Positions 76 to 17,669 of a stretch of DNA of 64,000 nt are shown here, one piece after another. The notes beneath the pieces are model-generated. The model was given only the letters and a program-made list of their open reading frames with translations. It had not been told where the DNA came from and made no database searches. Origin of the DNA: Escherichia phage MRostami-2023e; the sequence record OQ031495; one strand, written 5' to 3'. Made by a program: the position numbers and the translations under genes. Each line of letters opens with the position of its first letter. The first letter of the stretch is position 1.

Positions 76-420
76 ATGAAAGGTAATGTTTACTTAGTAG
101 TTCATGATTTAACGTTTTATTTTAACGAACATGATACAGTTATTTCAGACCGATTGATTAATTTGTTATACCAACACGCAGATTACATCTATGTTCAAAA
201 TGAATTCGGCCATTGGAAGTTCATTAAAAATCGTTCTGGGTTAACTAGTTTTGAATACTTTGATCGTAAAGACCTTTTAAACGAAATCCCATTGCAACAT
301 CGGTTCCAGAAACGCGAATCATTATATTATTGCCGTCATATACCAAACGCCGAATGTGTTAATGAAGCGATTAATCTATGGAGACGGCGTCGAGAGCAAA
401 TTGATGATATGCCAAAATAA
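76..420 (+). CDS. hypothetical protein (114 aa)
   Basis: ORF with GAGGAAAATATG Shine-Dalgarno/start; no recognisable motif. Confidence 0.45.
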   Translation: MKGNVYLVVHDLTFYFNEHDTVISDRLINLLYQHADYIYVQNEFGHWKFIKNRSGLTSFEYFDRKDLLNEIPLQHRFQKRESLYYCRHIPNAECVNEAINLWRRRREQIDDMPK

Positions 421-722
421 GAAGCCGGGTCGCTACCGGTAAGTCGTCGGACTGATGTTCCCTGAGTAAGGACTGGTCTTAATAAATCTTTACGATTTGT
501 TAATATCCCCTTACACCACAGCAGAAACGGCGCACCGAATTATCGATTCGAGGAAATATCTTTGCCGTAAGCCGAGTAGCGTTTTTGACGGAACGTTCGG
601 ATATGGTCGAGATATGGCCTTTTAAAAATATTGAGTAGCGTCAACTACTTAATAACCGGGTTCAAATCCCGGCGTTTCGTACAAACACTTGCCTTAGCAG
701 GTGGAACCCCGACAAGGTATAT
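421..722 (+). ncRNA. ORF-free structured region, candidate stable RNA(s) with tRNA-like T-arm and acceptor stem
   Basis: No ORF over 300 nt; T-arm-like ccggg/ttcaaat/cccgg at about 656-672; possible acceptor pairing cggaacg (589-595) with cgtttcg (673-679); followed by terminator. No canonical anticodon arm found. Confidence 0.3.
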
Positions 723-751
723 AGCCCCTTCCGAAAGGTTGGGGCTTTTTT
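723..751 (+). terminator. rho-independent terminator
   Basis: agcccc...ggggct stem with inner cc-gaaa-gg, then T6. Confidence 0.6.
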
Positions 752-752
752 G

Positions 753-760
753 TATAAATA
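753..760 (+). promoter_or_regulatory. T4-type late promoter core TATAAATA
   Basis: Exact TATAAATA about 35 nt upstream of the internal-protein-like gene. Confidence 0.5.
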
Positions 761-795
761 TAGTAAACAATAAACCCACTTTCTAAGGACCATCA

Positions 796-1428
796 ATGTA
801 TACTTTTAATGAATTTTTAGCCGAAACGGAAGTAATCACCGAAGCCGGCGTACGTATGACAAAAGAGAAATGGCAAGCTGCTTACGATGCTATTTCTGGT
901 ACAAAAACTAGTACAGAGTTTTTCAAAAACGTTCAAGCCATGTACGGTATCGACACTTCCAGCCAAAAAGAATATTACAGAGCTTCTAAAGCATTCAAAG
1001 ATATTGTTAGTGGTGGTGTTTCTGCTAAATCGGGTTCGCCTAAAGTAAAACCTGCTCCTACCATTCCTAAACCTGCGACCCCTAAAGCAATAGCAAAACC
1101 TGAGCCTAAGCCTAAGCCTGAAGTAAAAGCAACTCCTAAAGCTCCTGCTCTTAAGTTTGATACTTCTAGCCTGGAAAAAAAATATAAACAACTATCTTCG
1201 CTTGTTCGCGATATTGAATCCGATACATCTTCACTCGTTCGTGAATTCAATAGTCTTCGTAATGGCCAACATATCAACAACCTTGATACCCCAGACCTTT
1301 ATCGTCTTTATTTGACTATCGAAGGTTTGAAGTATACTCAACCACTTCATGATGAGATTAAAGAAAAACTTCGTCAGGCAGGTCGTTTGGCTGCTGACGC
1401 TGCTCAGTATGCAAAAACTCGTAAGTAA
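796..1428 (+). CDS. internal-protein-like virion protein with N-terminal capsid-targeting-like sequence and Pro/Lys-rich repeat linker
   Basis: N-terminus MYTFNEFLAE resembles T4 IP capsid-targeting sequence MKTYQEFIAE; low-complexity PKPxxPK repeats; late promoter upstream. Confidence 0.6.
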   Translation: MYTFNEFLAETEVITEAGVRMTKEKWQAAYDAISGTKTSTEFFKNVQAMYGIDTSSQKEYYRASKAFKDIVSGGVSAKSGSPKVKPAPTIPKPATPKAIAKPEPKPKPEVKATPKAPALKFDTSSLEKKYKQLSSLVRDIESDTSSLVREFNSLRNGQHINNLDTPDLYRLYLTIEGLKYTQPLHDEIKEKLRQAGRLAADAAQYAKTRK

Positions 1429-1433
1429 AGAAT

Positions 1434-1453
1434 GGGGACTTCGGTCCCCTTTA
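1434..1453 (+). terminator. rho-independent terminator (UUCG tetraloop)
   Basis: ggggac-ttcg-gtcccc followed by ttta. Confidence 0.6.
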
Positions 1454-1480: not shown

Positions 1481-1512
1481 GTTTACTTCTTCCCTAGATG
1501 TGTTACTATAGA
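1481..1512 (+). promoter_or_regulatory. T4-type early promoter candidate
   Basis: GTTTAC -35 element, about 18-nt spacer, tgtTACTATag -10 region. Confidence 0.45.
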
Positions 1513-2421: not shown

Positions 2422-3015
2422 ATGAACACACTGAAGAAACTTGTTGAATTCATCCGCACTAAACTGGGTACTGCTATGGCTAAAAATCTGACTGTCGAAG
2501 AACAGTATAACGCAGCTGCAGATAAGTTGATTACCCAAATCAAAGAACTAAAAACGGCTTCTGTTAAATCTATTAATGAAGAAAAACGTATTCGCGAACT
2601 TGTTAATGAAAAGAACAAGCAAGCCGCTTCTAAGGAACGTGAAATTCGTAAGCTCCTGGCCGAAGGACAAGATGTTACCATGCATGCTAAGCTTGGTCTT
2701 CTGTATCGTCGAACTGCCGAACAACTTAATACAAAAGCTGACGGGTATGCCGCTATGCGAATTGAAATTGCTCGTAAGGTGGTTGAACTTGACGATGCTC
2801 GTCAGAACCTGGCAATCAAACTCGAATACATTCGCGAAACTCGAGCAGCTAATGCCCTTGGTATCTCTACGGCCGATGATGTAATTGAAATCGCTGCACT
2901 GACTAAGGTTGATATCGAAGACACTCTGACTCGTGTTGAAACGTTCAATGGCACTCCAGCTGGTGTCGAAACCACTTCTGCTGATGTACAAGAATATATT
3001 AACTCTTTGAAATAA
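2422..3015 (+). CDS. coiled-coil protein (197 aa), weak PspA/IM30-like pattern
   Basis: Long heptad-like charged helices; assignment by eye only. Confidence 0.5.
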
Positions 3016-3023
3016 AATAATAC

Positions 3024-3046
3024 GGAGGACTCCGGTCCTCCTTTTG
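3024..3046 (+). terminator. rho-independent terminator
   Basis: ggaggac-tccg-gtcctcc followed by TTTT. Confidence 0.6.
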
Positions 3047-3064
3047 GATAATAAAGGAGTTAAC

Positions 3065-3667
3065 ATGCGAAACCAAAATAATGATATTGACTCAATGTTC
3101 GAAGAGTTCCGAGATAAGGTAAATCCACCTACGTCTTTAGTTGATTCATTACGATATGTTGCAACTGGGCGTAAATGGTACTGGTCGTCTTCTTATGAGA
3201 CTACTGAGAAAACAGCTAGCCATAGCAGAAAATCTTTATTAGCCCCAGGTATTATGATTCATGATATCGGAGCTATTGCTAAACTAGTTGCAGACCATGA
3301 TATTAGATTCACCGATTTCGTTGCTCCTACATGGTCTGTTTGTTGTTTAAACACCGAATGGGAATATATCAGCGAACGCTCTAAAGATTATTATGGTTTT
3401 AGAGATAAGCTTTTAAGGTCTAACATGTTTTATATTGATACAGAAGTTCTGGTCAATAATAAAAAATACTACTTCACTTTAATCGTCGATTCTGAAACTA
3501 TGTATGAAGGCAAGCCTTTGCTTAAAAGAGTTGATGCTTTAAGTGCTATTGATGCGCTTTATGAAACTATGGTTGTTAGTCCTAATTTCACTAACAATTT
3601 AATCCTTGAGCAATTTATTATGGAATGTAGAGAATATGTCAAAGCCAACCCTATACATGCCAAGTAA
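3065..3667 (+). CDS. hypothetical protein (200 aa)
   Basis: AAAGGAG Shine-Dalgarno plus ATG. Confidence 0.55.
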   Translation: MRNQNNDIDSMFEEFRDKVNPPTSLVDSLRYVATGRKWYWSSSYETTEKTASHSRKSLLAPGIMIHDIGAIAKLVADHDIRFTDFVAPTWSVCCLNTEWEYISERSKDYYGFRDKLLRSNMFYIDTEVLVNNKKYYFTLIVDSETMYEGKPLLKRVDALSAIDALYETMVVSPNFTNNLILEQFIMECREYVKANPIHAK

Positions 3668-4031
3668 GCCCTGGGCATACGAATACAAACGTAAATTAAT
3701 CCCAAACGAAGTACTATTTGGCCCTATTTTAGCTTTAGCATTTTTAATCTTTATGATTATAGGAGCTGTTTTAGATTCCAATAAAGTTATATCGTCCGAT
3801 GCAGCGTTTTCATTAATGTTCGTCGCACCACTTATTGTACCGTTTTTATTAATGCCTATTAATTGGGTAGGATATTGGCACCAAGGCCGTCATCACAGAG
3901 CTCGAGTTCGTGAGTGGAAAGTTCAGTGCGCAAAAGCCCAAGCTCAGTATGATGAAGCTGTTAAAAAGTATGAATATGAAGAAGCTATGGAATTCGTTAA
4001 GGAGATAAGATGCAAAAGCCACAACTCTTAA
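3636..4031 (+). CDS. small membrane protein; member of paralogous family with conserved C-terminal tail
   Basis: Two hydrophobic segments; C-terminal EFVKEIRCK related to the ENFIKECR tail of paralogs; start uncertain (alternative ATG at 3654). Confidence 0.45.
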   Translation: MSKPTLYMPSKPWAYEYKRKLIPNEVLFGPILALAFLIFMIIGAVLDSNKVISSDAAFSLMFVAPLIVPFLLMPINWVGYWHQGRHHRARVREWKVQCAKAQAQYDEAVKKYEYEEAMEFVKEIRCKSHNS

Positions 4032-4369
4032 CCGTATGGCCTTCTCTTGGTGAGAACATTCTAATTTTTATTATGAGTATTGGCATGGGATTTGCCTTTG
4101 GATTAGTTGGATTTCTTATTGACGGCGTTGTGTTAGGATTTATAGGGAACACTGGTGGATTCACAGACCAATGGCAGGACTTACGGTATACCCAAGCCTT
4201 TGCATCCATCGCATCCTTTTGTACTGTAGTCTATTTTTACTACGATTTTATAAACCGTAACAAGAAAAATAAAAAGGTTTACGCTTCTCAAATGGTTAGT
4301 TATAATGAACTCCTAGCTAGACGTGAAAATGAAACAATCGAAAACTTTATTAAGGAATGTAGAAAATGA
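4010..4369 (+). CDS. small membrane protein, paralog family (C-terminal ENFIKECRK)
   Basis: AAGGAG Shine-Dalgarno; hydrophobic N-terminal half; conserved C-terminal motif. Confidence 0.6.
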   Translation: MQKPQLLTVWPSLGENILIFIMSIGMGFAFGLVGFLIDGVVLGFIGNTGGFTDQWQDLRYTQAFASIASFCTVVYFYYDFINRNKKNKKVYASQMVSYNELLARRENETIENFIKECRK

Positions 4370-6447: not shown

Positions 6448-6728
6448 CTTCACAAAACTGTTTACANNNNNNNNNNNNNNNNNNNNNNNNNNNNNNNNNN
6501 NNNNNNNNNNNNNNNNNNNNNNNNNNNNNNNNNNNNNNNNNNNNNNNNNNNNNNNNNNNNNNNNNNNNNNNNNNNNNNNNNNNNNNNNNNNNNNNNNNNN
6601 NNNNNNNNNNNNNNNNNNNNNNNNNNNNNNNNNNNNNNNNNNNNNNNNNNNNNNNNNNNNNNNNNNNNNNNNNNNNNNNNNNNNNNNNNNNNNNNNNNNN
6701 NNNNNNNNNNNNNNNNNNNNNNNNNNNN

Positions 6729-8986: not shown

Positions 8987-9475
8987 ATGAATATATTTGA
9001 AATGCTTCGTAATGACGAAGGTCTTAGACTGACTTTATACAAAGACACTGAAGGCTTTTGGACGATTGGCATAGGCCATTTAGTAACAAAGAACCCGTCT
9101 TTAGCCGTAGCTAAAGCTGAACTTGACAGAATGATCGGACGTAAATGCAACGGTACAATTACCCTTGATGAGGCCGAAAAGCTATTTAATGAAGACGTTG
9201 ATAAAGCCGTTCGCGGAATCTTGGGTAATGCTAAACTTAAACCGGTATATGATTCTTTAGATGCGGTTCGTCGTTGTGCATTGGTCAATATGGTCTTCCA
9301 AATGGGTGTAGCAGGCGTCGCCGGTTTTACTAATTCTCTTCGTATGCTTCAACAGAAACGTTGGGATGAAGCGGCAGTAAATCTAGCCCAATCTAAATGG
9401 TATCGTCAGACACCTAATCGCGCGAAACGCGTAATCTCAACATTTAAAACAGGAACTTGGAAAGCGTATATATGA
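8987..9475 (+). CDS. e: T4-type lysozyme (endolysin, gene e)
   Basis: MNIFEMLR...DEGLRL..YKDTEG..TIGIGHL...[27 protein letters not shown] matches remembered T4 lysozyme nearly throughout. Confidence 0.95.
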
Positions 9476-9753
9476 AAACATATAGTGAATTTTTATCAGA
9501 ATCTATTCTTAACGAAGCTACTGACACATTTGCAACTAAGCTAGGTGCAGCTTTGGTTGAAGCCGAAAGTCTACTAGCACGTATTTCTGAACTTGCTAGT
9601 AAGATAGATACTCGCAAATTTGAACGTACTAGCGATATCGCTAAGCTTGAAGCCTTGTTACGTATGTGCAATAAACCGGAAGAAATCGCTAAGAACGGCT
9701 CGCTGATGAAACAACGTCTTGAAAAATATATTTCAGGCGCTTCAGAAAAATAG
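9472..9753 (+). CDS. internal protein (IPII/IPIII-like) with capsid targeting sequence
   Basis: N-terminus [10 protein letters not shown]; T4 position of ipIII/ipII between e and denV. Confidence 0.65.
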
Positions 9754-9811: not shown

Positions 9812-10348
9812 ATGACTCGTATCAATTTAACACTTGTTTCTGAACTGACCGACCAACATCTTATGGCTGAGTATCGTGAATTACCACGCGTATTTGGTGC
9901 AGTCCGTAAACATGTTCAAAACGGTAAACGTGTAAAGGATTTTAAAATCTCTCCAACATTTATCTTAGGCACAGGTCACGTAACATTCTTTTACGACAAA
10001 CTTGAATTTTTACGTTTAAGACAAATCGAGCTAATCGCTGAATGTTTGAAACGTGGTTTCAAAATCAAGGACACGACAGTCCAGGATATTTCCGACATCC
10101 CTGCCGAATTTCGTAATAATTATGTCCCGTCCGAAGCGTCCATTGCGATAAGTCAAGCACGCTTAGATGAAAAAATTGCTCAACGTCCGACTTGGTACAA
10201 ATACTATGGTAAATCAATTTACCAAGGAAAAATGAAAATGTATCAAGAATTTATCATTGAAGCAGATGCCAAAGGTCCTAAAGTAGATGTTGACGATATT
10301 GGATACGATTTTAACAACTTCGGAATTATTTCTGGCGGTAAAGCTTAA
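9812..10348 (+). CDS. denV: endonuclease V (pyrimidine-dimer DNA glycosylase DenV) with about 40-aa C-terminal extension
   Basis: First about 136 aa match remembered T4 DenV ([34 protein letters not shown]..); normal stop position is read through into [16 protein letters not shown].. Confidence 0.85.
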
Positions 10349-10411: not shown

Positions 10412-10729
10412 ATGAAAACATATAAAGAATTTATCGCCGAATCTGCTGCAGGACAACGTGTAGAAGGTGGTTATATCTGGATTGAACAAGTTGAGCCGCC
10501 AAGTCGCACTTCTACAGGTAAATGGAAAATCACTGTTGATGGTCCTGGTGGTAAACGTAGGACTCTTAAAGAAATTAATGGGTACTATGAAGAAGCTCTT
10601 TCTGACGCGGGTACTTATATGATGCAAATCATGATTAAAAACCCAGAAAATCGTTTTGCGGCTAGAGTTTTCCGCCGTATTGGAAATAAGCTTTATGATG
10701 CATATTCTAAAAACTTCCCTAAAGAATAA
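10412..10729 (+). CDS. internal-protein-like protein with capsid targeting sequence
   Basis: N-terminus MKTYKEFIAES. Confidence 0.6.
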   Translation: MKTYKEFIAESAAGQRVEGGYIWIEQVEPPSRTSTGKWKITVDGPGGKRRTLKEINGYYEEALSDAGTYMMQIMIKNPENRFAARVFRRIGNKLYDAYSKNFPKE

Positions 10730-10745
10730 AAATTAAAGGAAACAT

Positions 10746-10777
10746 ATGAAAACATATCAAGAATTTATTACTGAAGC
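10746..10777 (+). CDS. internal-protein-like gene, 5' end only (continues into masked region)
   Basis: AAGGAAACATATG start; MKTYQEFITE capsid-targeting-like N-terminus; truncated by N-run. Confidence 0.5.
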
Positions 10778-11381
10778 NNNNNNNNNNNNNNNNNNNNNNN
10801 NNNNNNNNNNNNNNNNNNNNNNNNNNNNNNNNNNNNNNNNNNNNNNNNNNNNNNNNNNNNNNNNNNNNNNNNNNNNNNNNNNNNNNNNNNNNNNNNNNNN
10901 NNNNNNNNNNNNNNNNNNNNNNNNNNNNNNNNNNNNNNNNNNNNNNNNNNNNNNNNNNNNNNNNNNNNNNNNNNNNNNNNNNNNNNNNNNNNNNNNNNNN
11001 NNNNNNNNNNNNNNNNNNNNNNNNNNNNNNNNNNNNNNNNNNNNNNNNNNNNNNNNNNNNNNNNNNNNNNNNNNNNNNNNNNNNNNNNNNNNNNNNNNNN
11101 NNNNNNNNNNNNNNNNNNNNNNNNNNNNNNNNNNNNNNNNNNNNNNNNNNNNNNNNNNNNNNNNNNNNNNNNNNNNNNNNNNNNNNNNNNNNNNNNNNNN
11201 NNNNNNNNNNNNNNNNNTATTTACATTCAAATAACATGGGAACAACCTGGACCTCATGATTCTATGAGGGATTCCCGCCAACCTGTAATAAGGTCGAGCC
11301 CAAGTGCGGTAATGGGTTTACATAGCGAGTCGAAGGACCTAACATGTGCCACGGAATGGCCCAAACCTTAAGAGAAATAAT

Positions 11382-17288: not shown

Positions 17289-17669
17289 NNNNNNNNNNNN
17301 NNNNNNNNNNNNNNNNNNNNNNNNNNNNNNNNNNNNNNNNNNNNNNNNNNNNNNNNNNNNNNNNNNNNNNNNNNNNNNNNNNNNNNNNNNNNNNNNNNNN
17401 NNNNNNNNNNNNNNNNNNNNNNNNNNNNNNNNNNNNNNNNNNNNNNNNNNNNNNNNNNNNNNNNNNNNNNNNNNNNNNNNNNNNNNNNNNNNNNNNNNNN
17501 NNNNNNNNNNNNNNNNNNNNNNNNNNNNNNNNNNNNNNNNNNNNNNNNNNNNNNNNNNNNNNNNNNNNNNNNNNNNNNNNNNNNNNNNNNNNNNNNNNNN
17601 NNNNNNNNNNNNNNNNNNNNNNNNNNNNCAAGTTGAAGAACTTTATCGACATTTAAAACACAATCGGTA

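Follow-up and report, generated by a model that had tools for sequence, protein, structure and literature searches.

Within the 64,000 nucleotides of Escherichia phage MRostami-2023e that were analysed (record OQ031495; this whole stretch is called the window in the following), an open reading frame whose start resembles a capsid-targeting sequence (CTS) lies directly 3' of the stable RNA gene rnaC. This raises the question whether the gene encodes a protein that is carried inside the phage head and, if so, to which of the known classes it belongs. A sequence-only reading of the window had described a 210-aa ORF that starts with MYTFNEFLAE and contains a Pro/Lys-rich segment, and the translation of positions 796-1428 on the plus strand, from an ATG start, bore this out. 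We consider it likely that the ORF represents a family of internal head proteins of the T4 type that has so far gone unannotated. Its members would be made late, targeted to the prohead, trimmed after Glu10 and/or Glu16, kept in the head together with the DNA, and injected. The features on which the argument is built are collected in Table 1.

Table 1. Features of the ORF, its flanks and the other CTS-type ORFs (positions refer to the window)
Feature	Position	Strand	Remarks
Intrinsic terminator	723..752	+	stem 723-746, U6 747-752; ends the tRNA/rnaD/rnaC transcription unit
T4-type late promoter box TATAAATA	753..760	+	35 nt before the ATG; directly after the terminator
Shine-Dalgarno AAGGA	785..789	+	6 nt before the ATG; read from the sequence
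CDS	796..1428	+	210 aa; PHROG 2280 (unknown function); identical to moskry_164 (QHR76602.1)
CTS MYTFNEFLAE, residues 1-10	796..825	+	predicted gp21 cleavage after Glu10 (L-A-E/T)
Variable spacer TEVITE, residues 11-16	826..843	+	ends in the second predicted cleavage site, I-T-E/AG
N-domain, residues 17-73	844..1014	+	three short predicted helices, H23-31, H39-50 and H57-72; pLDDT 80-87 (AlphaFold2)
Pro/Ala/Lys tether, residues 74-118	1015..1149	+	disordered; pLDDT below 50
C-domain, residues 119-210	1150..1425	+	long predicted helical hairpin and third helix; best-conserved part of the family
Hairpin GGGGAC-UUCG-GUCCCC	1434..1449	+	-12 kcal/mol; followed by UUU only
CTS ORF	9472-9753	+	93 aa; phrog_3499 'internal head protein'
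CTS ORF	10232-10348	+	38 aa; possibly a remnant
CTS ORF MKTYKEFIAE	10412-10729	+	105 aa; phrog_3966 'unknown function'; early-type promoter upstream
CTS ORF MKTYQEFITE	10746-11234	+	162 aa; IPIII-like; mostly masked by N

The ORF is real. Over its first 3000 bases the window matched Escherichia phage vB_EQ1 at 100% identity and many further Mosigvirus genomes (e.g. moskry and G2469) at 97-99%, and PHROG 2280 was the sole library match of the product (E 4.7e-58; residues 1-205 against profile positions 1-178 of 178). The names attached to its relatives were uniform: all members of the 90% cluster (112/112) were called 'hypothetical protein', as were all distant relatives that carried any name, and no record or library examined gave PHROG 2280 an internal-protein label. 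Searches of the remaining libraries returned: a best Pfam match to SIX1_SD (E 0.051) under its cut-off, compositional NCBIfam matches to TonB, ClfB and SucB alone, far under their cut-offs and located on the low-complexity linker, no match in PADLOC, and a best E not below 0.87 in the sequence-profile search of the PDB. The literature we searched mentions neither the locus tags of the family nor PHROG 2280, and it yielded neither virion proteomes nor transcript measurements that cover a homologue. A virion proteome has been published for phage phiR1-RT, but this phage does not have the gene, and no peptides of the family were found in the supplements of the virion proteome of ValerieMcCarty (Jiaodavirus). 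The paper on the Kosakonia phage presents no mass-spectrometric results.

An indication of the role of the product is found at its N-terminus, MYTFNEFLAE/TEVITE/AG, where the slashes mark predicted cleavages. In the T4 record, the corresponding starts read MKTYQEFIAE/A for IPII and IPIII and MKTFKEFTSTTTPVSTITE/A for IPI. Compared with the tag of IPII and IPIII, residues M1, T3, E6, F7, A9 and E10 are identical, Tyr is replaced by Phe at position 4 and Ile by Leu at position 8, and position 2 is Tyr rather than Lys or Leu. Work with amber suppressors assigned targeting to CTS residues 4 and 7, and processing to residues 8 and 10 (PMC9026906). The ORF carries Phe, Phe, Leu and Glu there, and its tag fits the T4 CTS at every position of experimental importance (aromatic 4, Phe7, Ile/Leu8 and Glu10). 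The second site, I14-T15-E16/AG, resembles the site at the end of the longer propeptide of T4 IPI (...STITE/A, as against EVITE/AG here). Two further [LIV]-x-E triplets are present, one at residues 148-150 and the other at 188-190. The motif M..[YF].[ED][FI][IL].E, which was derived from the family, matched five times when the 64-kb window was translated in all six frames, against 0.02 times in residue shuffles, and each of the five occurrences coincides with an ORF start (796, 9472, 10232, 10412 and 10746).

Besides the ORF studied here, four more ORFs with CTS-type decapeptide starts are thus located on the plus strand of the window (Table 1), and therefore the phage has at least five CTS genes, two of which are without an internal-protein label in PHROGs. 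In total 1,928 bases of the window are masked by N, in 10 runs (e.g. 1799-1827, 6467-6728, 10778-11217 and 17289-17628); of these, one breaks the ORF at 1538-1843 and a second covers most of the IPIII-like ORF at 10746.

The comparison was extended to ten homologous loci, taken from Mosig-, Dhaka-, Winkler-, Kagamiyama-, Kanagawa-, Teguna-, Karam- and Marfavirus. The tag and a following [LIV]-x-E site (before A or S) were kept in 10/10 loci. The spacer between the two varied from 0 to 8 residues, with indels between genera, and this pattern, in which the tag was kept while the spacer was not, argues for selection on the tag itself. The annotation of the vB_EQ1 genome lists a portal, gp67/68-like proteins, a head maturation protease, a scaffold and the major head protein at 57-64 kb. 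For the predicted mature protein, cut at Glu10 or Glu16, we calculated a mass of 21.5-22.2 kDa, a pI of 9.66-9.77 and a net charge of +12 to +14. By its CTS, its (L/I)-x-E sites, the gp21-type protease encoded in the same genome and its small, basic mature form, the product appears to fit the T4-type class of CTS-bearing proteins. The capsid-targeting character that the sequence-only reading had proposed is supported at the level of sequence, by the CTS determinants, the cleavage motif, the late promoter (see below), the basic mature product, the conservation and the protease and scaffold genes; past the first ~25 N-terminal residues, no homology to IPI, IPII or IPIII was detected.

A CTS-like start could also have been acquired through recombination that shuffles the 5' ends of ip genes, in which case the gene might encode a late protein that does not enter the head; an assembly chaperone, a factor in the timing of lysis and a DNA-binding protein of the cytoplasm are examples. 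The divergence from T4 at position 2 would agree with this, as would the lack of proteomic support in the literature, the fact that the annotators of RB69 did not call the ORF at the same site an internal protein, and the long helical hairpins of the product, which are common in chaperones and oligomerisation modules. Nevertheless, we regard it as unlikely: the decapeptide is conserved across at least eight genera while the residues just after it drift with indels, the motif was found only at the starts of ORFs of the internal-protein class, and the protein is basic and of the size of IPIII*.

The expression signals were inspected on both sides of the gene. The perfect late promoter box that had been claimed is indeed present upstream of the ATG and conserved in the homologous loci. 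The count of the box does not exceed chance (4 copies of TATAAATA in the window, against 8.0 ± 2.8 in shuffles), and such under-representation would agree with selection against late-promoter boxes at sites other than real promoters. The copies, at 753, 16348, 20007 and 60046, are all on the plus strand (4/4, with 0 on minus), and each of them precedes an ATG with a Shine-Dalgarno sequence by 35-43 nt. At the equivalent distance, a box of the form xATAAATA was recovered in 10/10 homologous loci, as TATAAATA in five, GATAAATA in four and CATAAATA in one, while the flanks have diverged. The box at this locus is therefore credible on account of its position and conservation, not of its rarity.

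Directly before the box lies a strong terminator that the sequence-only reading had left unmentioned and that is much stronger than the hairpin downstream of the gene. Its stem and U6 tract reached -16 kcal/mol (z -3.24; one of 200 shuffles was as good), a terminator is annotated at the same element in phage G2469, and an equivalent hairpin was found 5' of the promoter box in JS98, fHe-Yen9-01, myPSH1140 and Marfa. Such a terminator would shield the ORF from early and middle transcripts that start upstream. Reading by eye the stretch between terminator and ATG, we saw no promoter of the early or middle type, and the gene therefore looks late-only, as judged by promoter type.

The claim of a downstream terminator holds in part. 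A hairpin does follow the stop codon, and it is kept with compensatory stem changes in JS98, CHI14, EcS1, Kosakonia 305, Marfa, myPSH1140 and CIP9, but the U tract is minimal (Table 1), the energy is unremarkable (z -0.39) and the terminator scan scored the element on the minus strand only. The hairpin is either a weak terminator or a 3' structure that stabilises the mRNA. Immediately after it, a T4-early-like promoter (GTTTAC-17 nt-TACTAT, window 1481-1509, plus strand) precedes the next gene, at 1538, and GTTTAC...TA..AT-like elements were also seen 3' of the hairpin in most other loci that were read.

The genomic position separates the gene from the internal-protein genes of T4. The sequence-only reading had located it next to the tRNA region, which is correct, and in the position of IPI, which is not. 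In T4 and RB69, ipI is flanked by 57B and trna.4 and precedes the tRNA cluster, whereas the ORF follows tRNA-Arg, rnaD and rnaC and precedes the homologues of e.8/e.6/e.5. An ipI-locus gene was thus ruled out by the order with respect to 57B and trna.4-trna.2. In phage G2469 the order is 4-2-3-1-57A-57B-...-tRNA-Met-tRNA-Arg-ORF-RNA region-homologue of the ORF studied here-...-e-denV, and the corresponding site of T4, after rnaC, is a 285-bp gap without a gene. The ORF occupies a third locus, after rnaC, that is distinct from the ipI and the ipII/ipIII loci. Its placement right after the tRNA cluster was recovered in seven of the eight annotated loci (JS98, CHI14, EcS1, Kosakonia 305, Marfa, fHe-Yen9-01 and CIP9); in the record of the eighth, myPSH1140, the gene is unannotated, yet both the ORF and the late box are present.

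The RNA region itself (window 415-718, plus strand) is 93% identical to two stable RNAs of T4, rnaD (species 2) and rnaC (species 1), whose homologues it contains. Neither ARAGORN nor the Rfam models reported anything for this stretch, and rnaD and rnaC seem to be without a curated RNA family. A tRNA or tmRNA at 421-750 was considered and rejected, the region being the rnaD/rnaC homologue. Between tRNA-Arg (1-54) and rnaD, which abut in T4, an ORF of 114 aa intervenes here (window 76-420, plus strand; phrog_3355, unknown function).

The architecture of the protein, as predicted with AlphaFold2, consists of a helix at residues 4-11 of the CTS, an N-domain, a disordered tether and a C-domain (Table 1). 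The N-domain alone matches positions 13-74 of PHROG 2280. Among the 45 residues of the tether are 12 P, 8 A and 10 K, giving a net charge of +8 and a pI of 10.4. What had been described as an unusual repeat linker is a low-complexity, P/K-rich segment as stated, but not a true tandem repeat: TRF detected nothing apart from CCTAAG x3.5 at 1099-1119, inside the tether, and this microrepeat is the site of a 2-aa length polymorphism between strains (208/210 aa). The segment is better described as a compositionally biased P/A/K tether. Across the ten loci its composition and positive charge were kept; its sequence and its length (22-52 residues) were not. The helical C-terminal domain that had been anticipated was reproduced by the structure prediction (H124-155, H166-179 and H182-208), with a pLDDT of 90.7 and a pTM of 0.73 when residues 115-210 were folded alone, and most of the invariant columns of the family fall in this domain. 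With Foldseek, no match at E ≤ 0.001 was obtained in the PDB, and the two matches below E 0.001 in BFVD were the family member of fHe-Yen9-01 and an unnamed entry that is 67% identical. For both domains the fold searches returned family members or generic helical hairpins alone, and no functional clue.

The tether suggests another reading, in which the protein is packaged but structural: a histone-H1-like counter-ion or condensing protein for the DNA, with the P/A/K tract as the working part, the helical domains serving for oligomerisation, and no specific target in the host. The PAK-rich tails of histone H1 and of bacterial H1-like proteins bind DNA. The contacts of T4 internal proteins with DNA phosphates are made by lysines only (PMC3012670), and the P/A/K composition and positive charge persist in 10/10 loci despite the unconserved sequence. 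However, the C-domain and not the linker is the most conserved part, many relatives with genomes just as large to package lack the gene, and the replacement of the C-domain (see below) suggests a specific, selectable activity. We therefore hold a purely structural role to be quite improbable.

The family is narrow. An exhaustive HMMER search of 1.8 billion representatives yielded 12 proteins at E ≤ 0.001, the family comprises 138 phage records, and six loci were recovered from IMG/VR, one of which is a 24-kb metagenomic contig at 91% identity. All matches that name an organism are to T4-like phages of Enterobacterales, bar one record named Aeromonas phage. Of the genomes examined, those of T4 and phiR1-RT lack the gene. 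The related phage fHe-Yen9-01 contains two PHROG 2280 genes in tandem (3001-3570 and 3580-4116), gp154 and gp153, with the CTS-type starts MLQYNEFLKE and MLEYSEFLKE, respectively; phiR1-RT has none. In the CIP9-type Kanagawaviruses and the metagenomic P0023, an unrelated C-terminal domain follows the CTS, N-domain and tether; in Enterobacter phage CIP9 (gene at 1501-2127) this domain is ~95 aa long and has no PHROG match. The patchiness, duplication and domain exchange would fit an accessory gene with an arms-race-like pattern; reviews describe internal proteins as being caught in arms races with host defences (PMC3012670, PMC9026906, PMC9391042).

At the same site in RB69 (NC_004928, 11429-11991, minus strand in the record) we observed RB69ORF149c (MKTYAEFLTE..., 146 aa) and the overlapping ORF148c, which together display a CTS, the 'MYNIDTSS' motif of the N-domain, a short linker and the 'FDTKKY...' helix. 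The pair looks like one frameshifted, divergent relative, representing either a pseudogene or a sequencing error. Four other CTS ORFs of RB69 are annotated as 'internal head protein' or 'internal virion protein' (ipI); the pair is not among them.

That the product is an accessory of the prohead core or scaffold, which is targeted by its CTS and then degraded or expelled at maturation like gp22, gp67 and gp68 instead of being kept or injected, is very unlikely: the targeting tag, the late expression (as deduced from the promoter), the all-helical prediction as in scaffold proteins and the extra [LIV]-x-E triplets would all suit it, but these triplets are inside confidently predicted helices of the folded domain and are not followed by small residues as the N-terminal sites are, the product is strongly basic while the T4 core proteins are acidic, and a dispensable, patchily distributed gene whose domains are swapped does not look like one for a scaffold component.

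The reading that we prefer, that of an injected internal head protein, can be put in the form of a sequence of events. The analysis shows how the gene is built, that its start fits the motif, that it is conserved and that protease and scaffold genes accompany it; packaging, cleavage, injection and the host target are inferred. Transcription would be late-only, from the TATAAATA promoter directly after the strong terminator. The decapeptide MYTFNEFLAE would then carry the protein into the scaffolding core of the prohead, where the gp21-type head maturation protease is predicted to cut after Glu10 (L-A-E) and probably to trim to Glu16 (I-T-E/AG). The resulting basic protein (21.5-22.2 kDa, pI about 9.7) would be trapped in the head with the DNA and ejected with it into the cell. 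Inside the head, the Lys-rich Pro/Ala tether most likely runs along the packaged DNA via lysine-phosphate contacts; that the tether binds DNA through its lysines is, by analogy, probable. The tether would also allow the two small helical domains to go through the portal and the tail channel in turn. The conserved C-terminal helical domain is probably the part that acts in the host, and by analogy with IPI* and IPIII its action is most likely directed against a first-response host defence.

A more tentative and, in our opinion, rather doubtful extension is that the family may be a modular delivery chassis, in which a CTS, a helical N-domain and a cationic tether are kept and unrelated C-terminal 'cargo' domains are exchanged. 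The helical domain of the window type and the domain of the CIP9/P0023 type would then be two cargoes, and the tether would be a DNA-riding leash that ensures co-ejection with the genome. If true, the family would be a capsid-injected counterpart of the polymorphic toxin/effector systems.

Internal proteins are the first phage proteins in the host cytoplasm, and host range is determined by the two of T4 whose phenotypes are known (IPI* against GmrSD, IPIII on ECOR17). Both Mosigviruses and Dhakaviruses find wide use as therapeutic candidates. A conserved, probably injected and unannotated protein is in this light a candidate host-range or anti-defence factor. Its tag offers a natural second example of a CTS for the engineering of protein delivery, and the replacement of the C-domain suggests where further injected effectors may be sought.

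When compared with known systems, the tether is alike in composition to the Pro-Glu/Pro-Lys spacer of TonB (E 2.7e-4; 20.9 bits against a cut-off of 315) and to the Ala/Pro/Lys linkers of the E2 subunits of 2-oxo-acid dehydrogenases (SucB and the PDH E2 subunit, E 0.19-2.4). These segments act as extended, flexible or semi-rigid spacers. The scores are far under the cut-offs and confined to the low-complexity segment, and the likeness does not amount to homology.

Among the T4 internal proteins, IPIII (ipIII, NP_049735) is close in several properties: an N-terminal CTS of the same type, L/I-x-E processing, a similar mature form (20.4 kDa, pI 9.65 and net +10 for IPIII*, against 21.5-22.2 kDa, ~9.7 and +12 to +14 here) and a gene in the accessory region tRNA-e-denV, although ipIII adjoins e. 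In hhalign, residues 1-26 aligned with the first 25 of IPIII, a weak match (probability 25%, E 7.6e-4) that takes in a '(T/N)K(D/E)(E/K)W' stretch and reaches residue 26; past about this residue hhalign detected no homology to IPIII. Because the alignment covers residues 1-26 only, the product is assigned to a separate family. IPIII moreover has no Pro/Ala/Lys tether (4 Pro, against 14 in the product). Membership of the IPI/IPII/IPIII family was rejected, the product belonging to PHROG 2280 and not to phrog_3499, with IPI and IPII compared by reading the sequences.

IPI, which as IPI* inhibits GmrSD, is a packaged and injected anti-restriction protein and provides the functional model for our product. 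Both genes are near the tRNA cluster without being positionally equivalent, and reading the two sequences side by side revealed no similarity after the tag. IPI* is a compact alpha/beta fold of 76 residues (PMC3012670), whereas two helical domains on a tether are predicted here. T4 makes the products of its ip genes at early and at late times (PMC6071114), in contrast to the ORF, for which a late promoter only was seen.

The T4 internal proteins are a diverse set that shares only the CTS (PMC3012670), and the product appears to conform to the description of the polymorphic, CTS-bearing internal proteins of the T-even phages (Rao & Black 2010, PMC3012670; Kuhn & Thomas 2022, PMC9026906), which are basic, have only the CTS in common and are presumably shaped by arms races with host defences; the agreement includes the patchy distribution and the domain replacement. 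Diverse CTS-tagged T-even proteins have been known for decades (PMC3012670, PMC9026906) and the ORF leaves that concept unchanged; what it adds is a new family of a well-known class, in which an unusual tether joins two helical domains.
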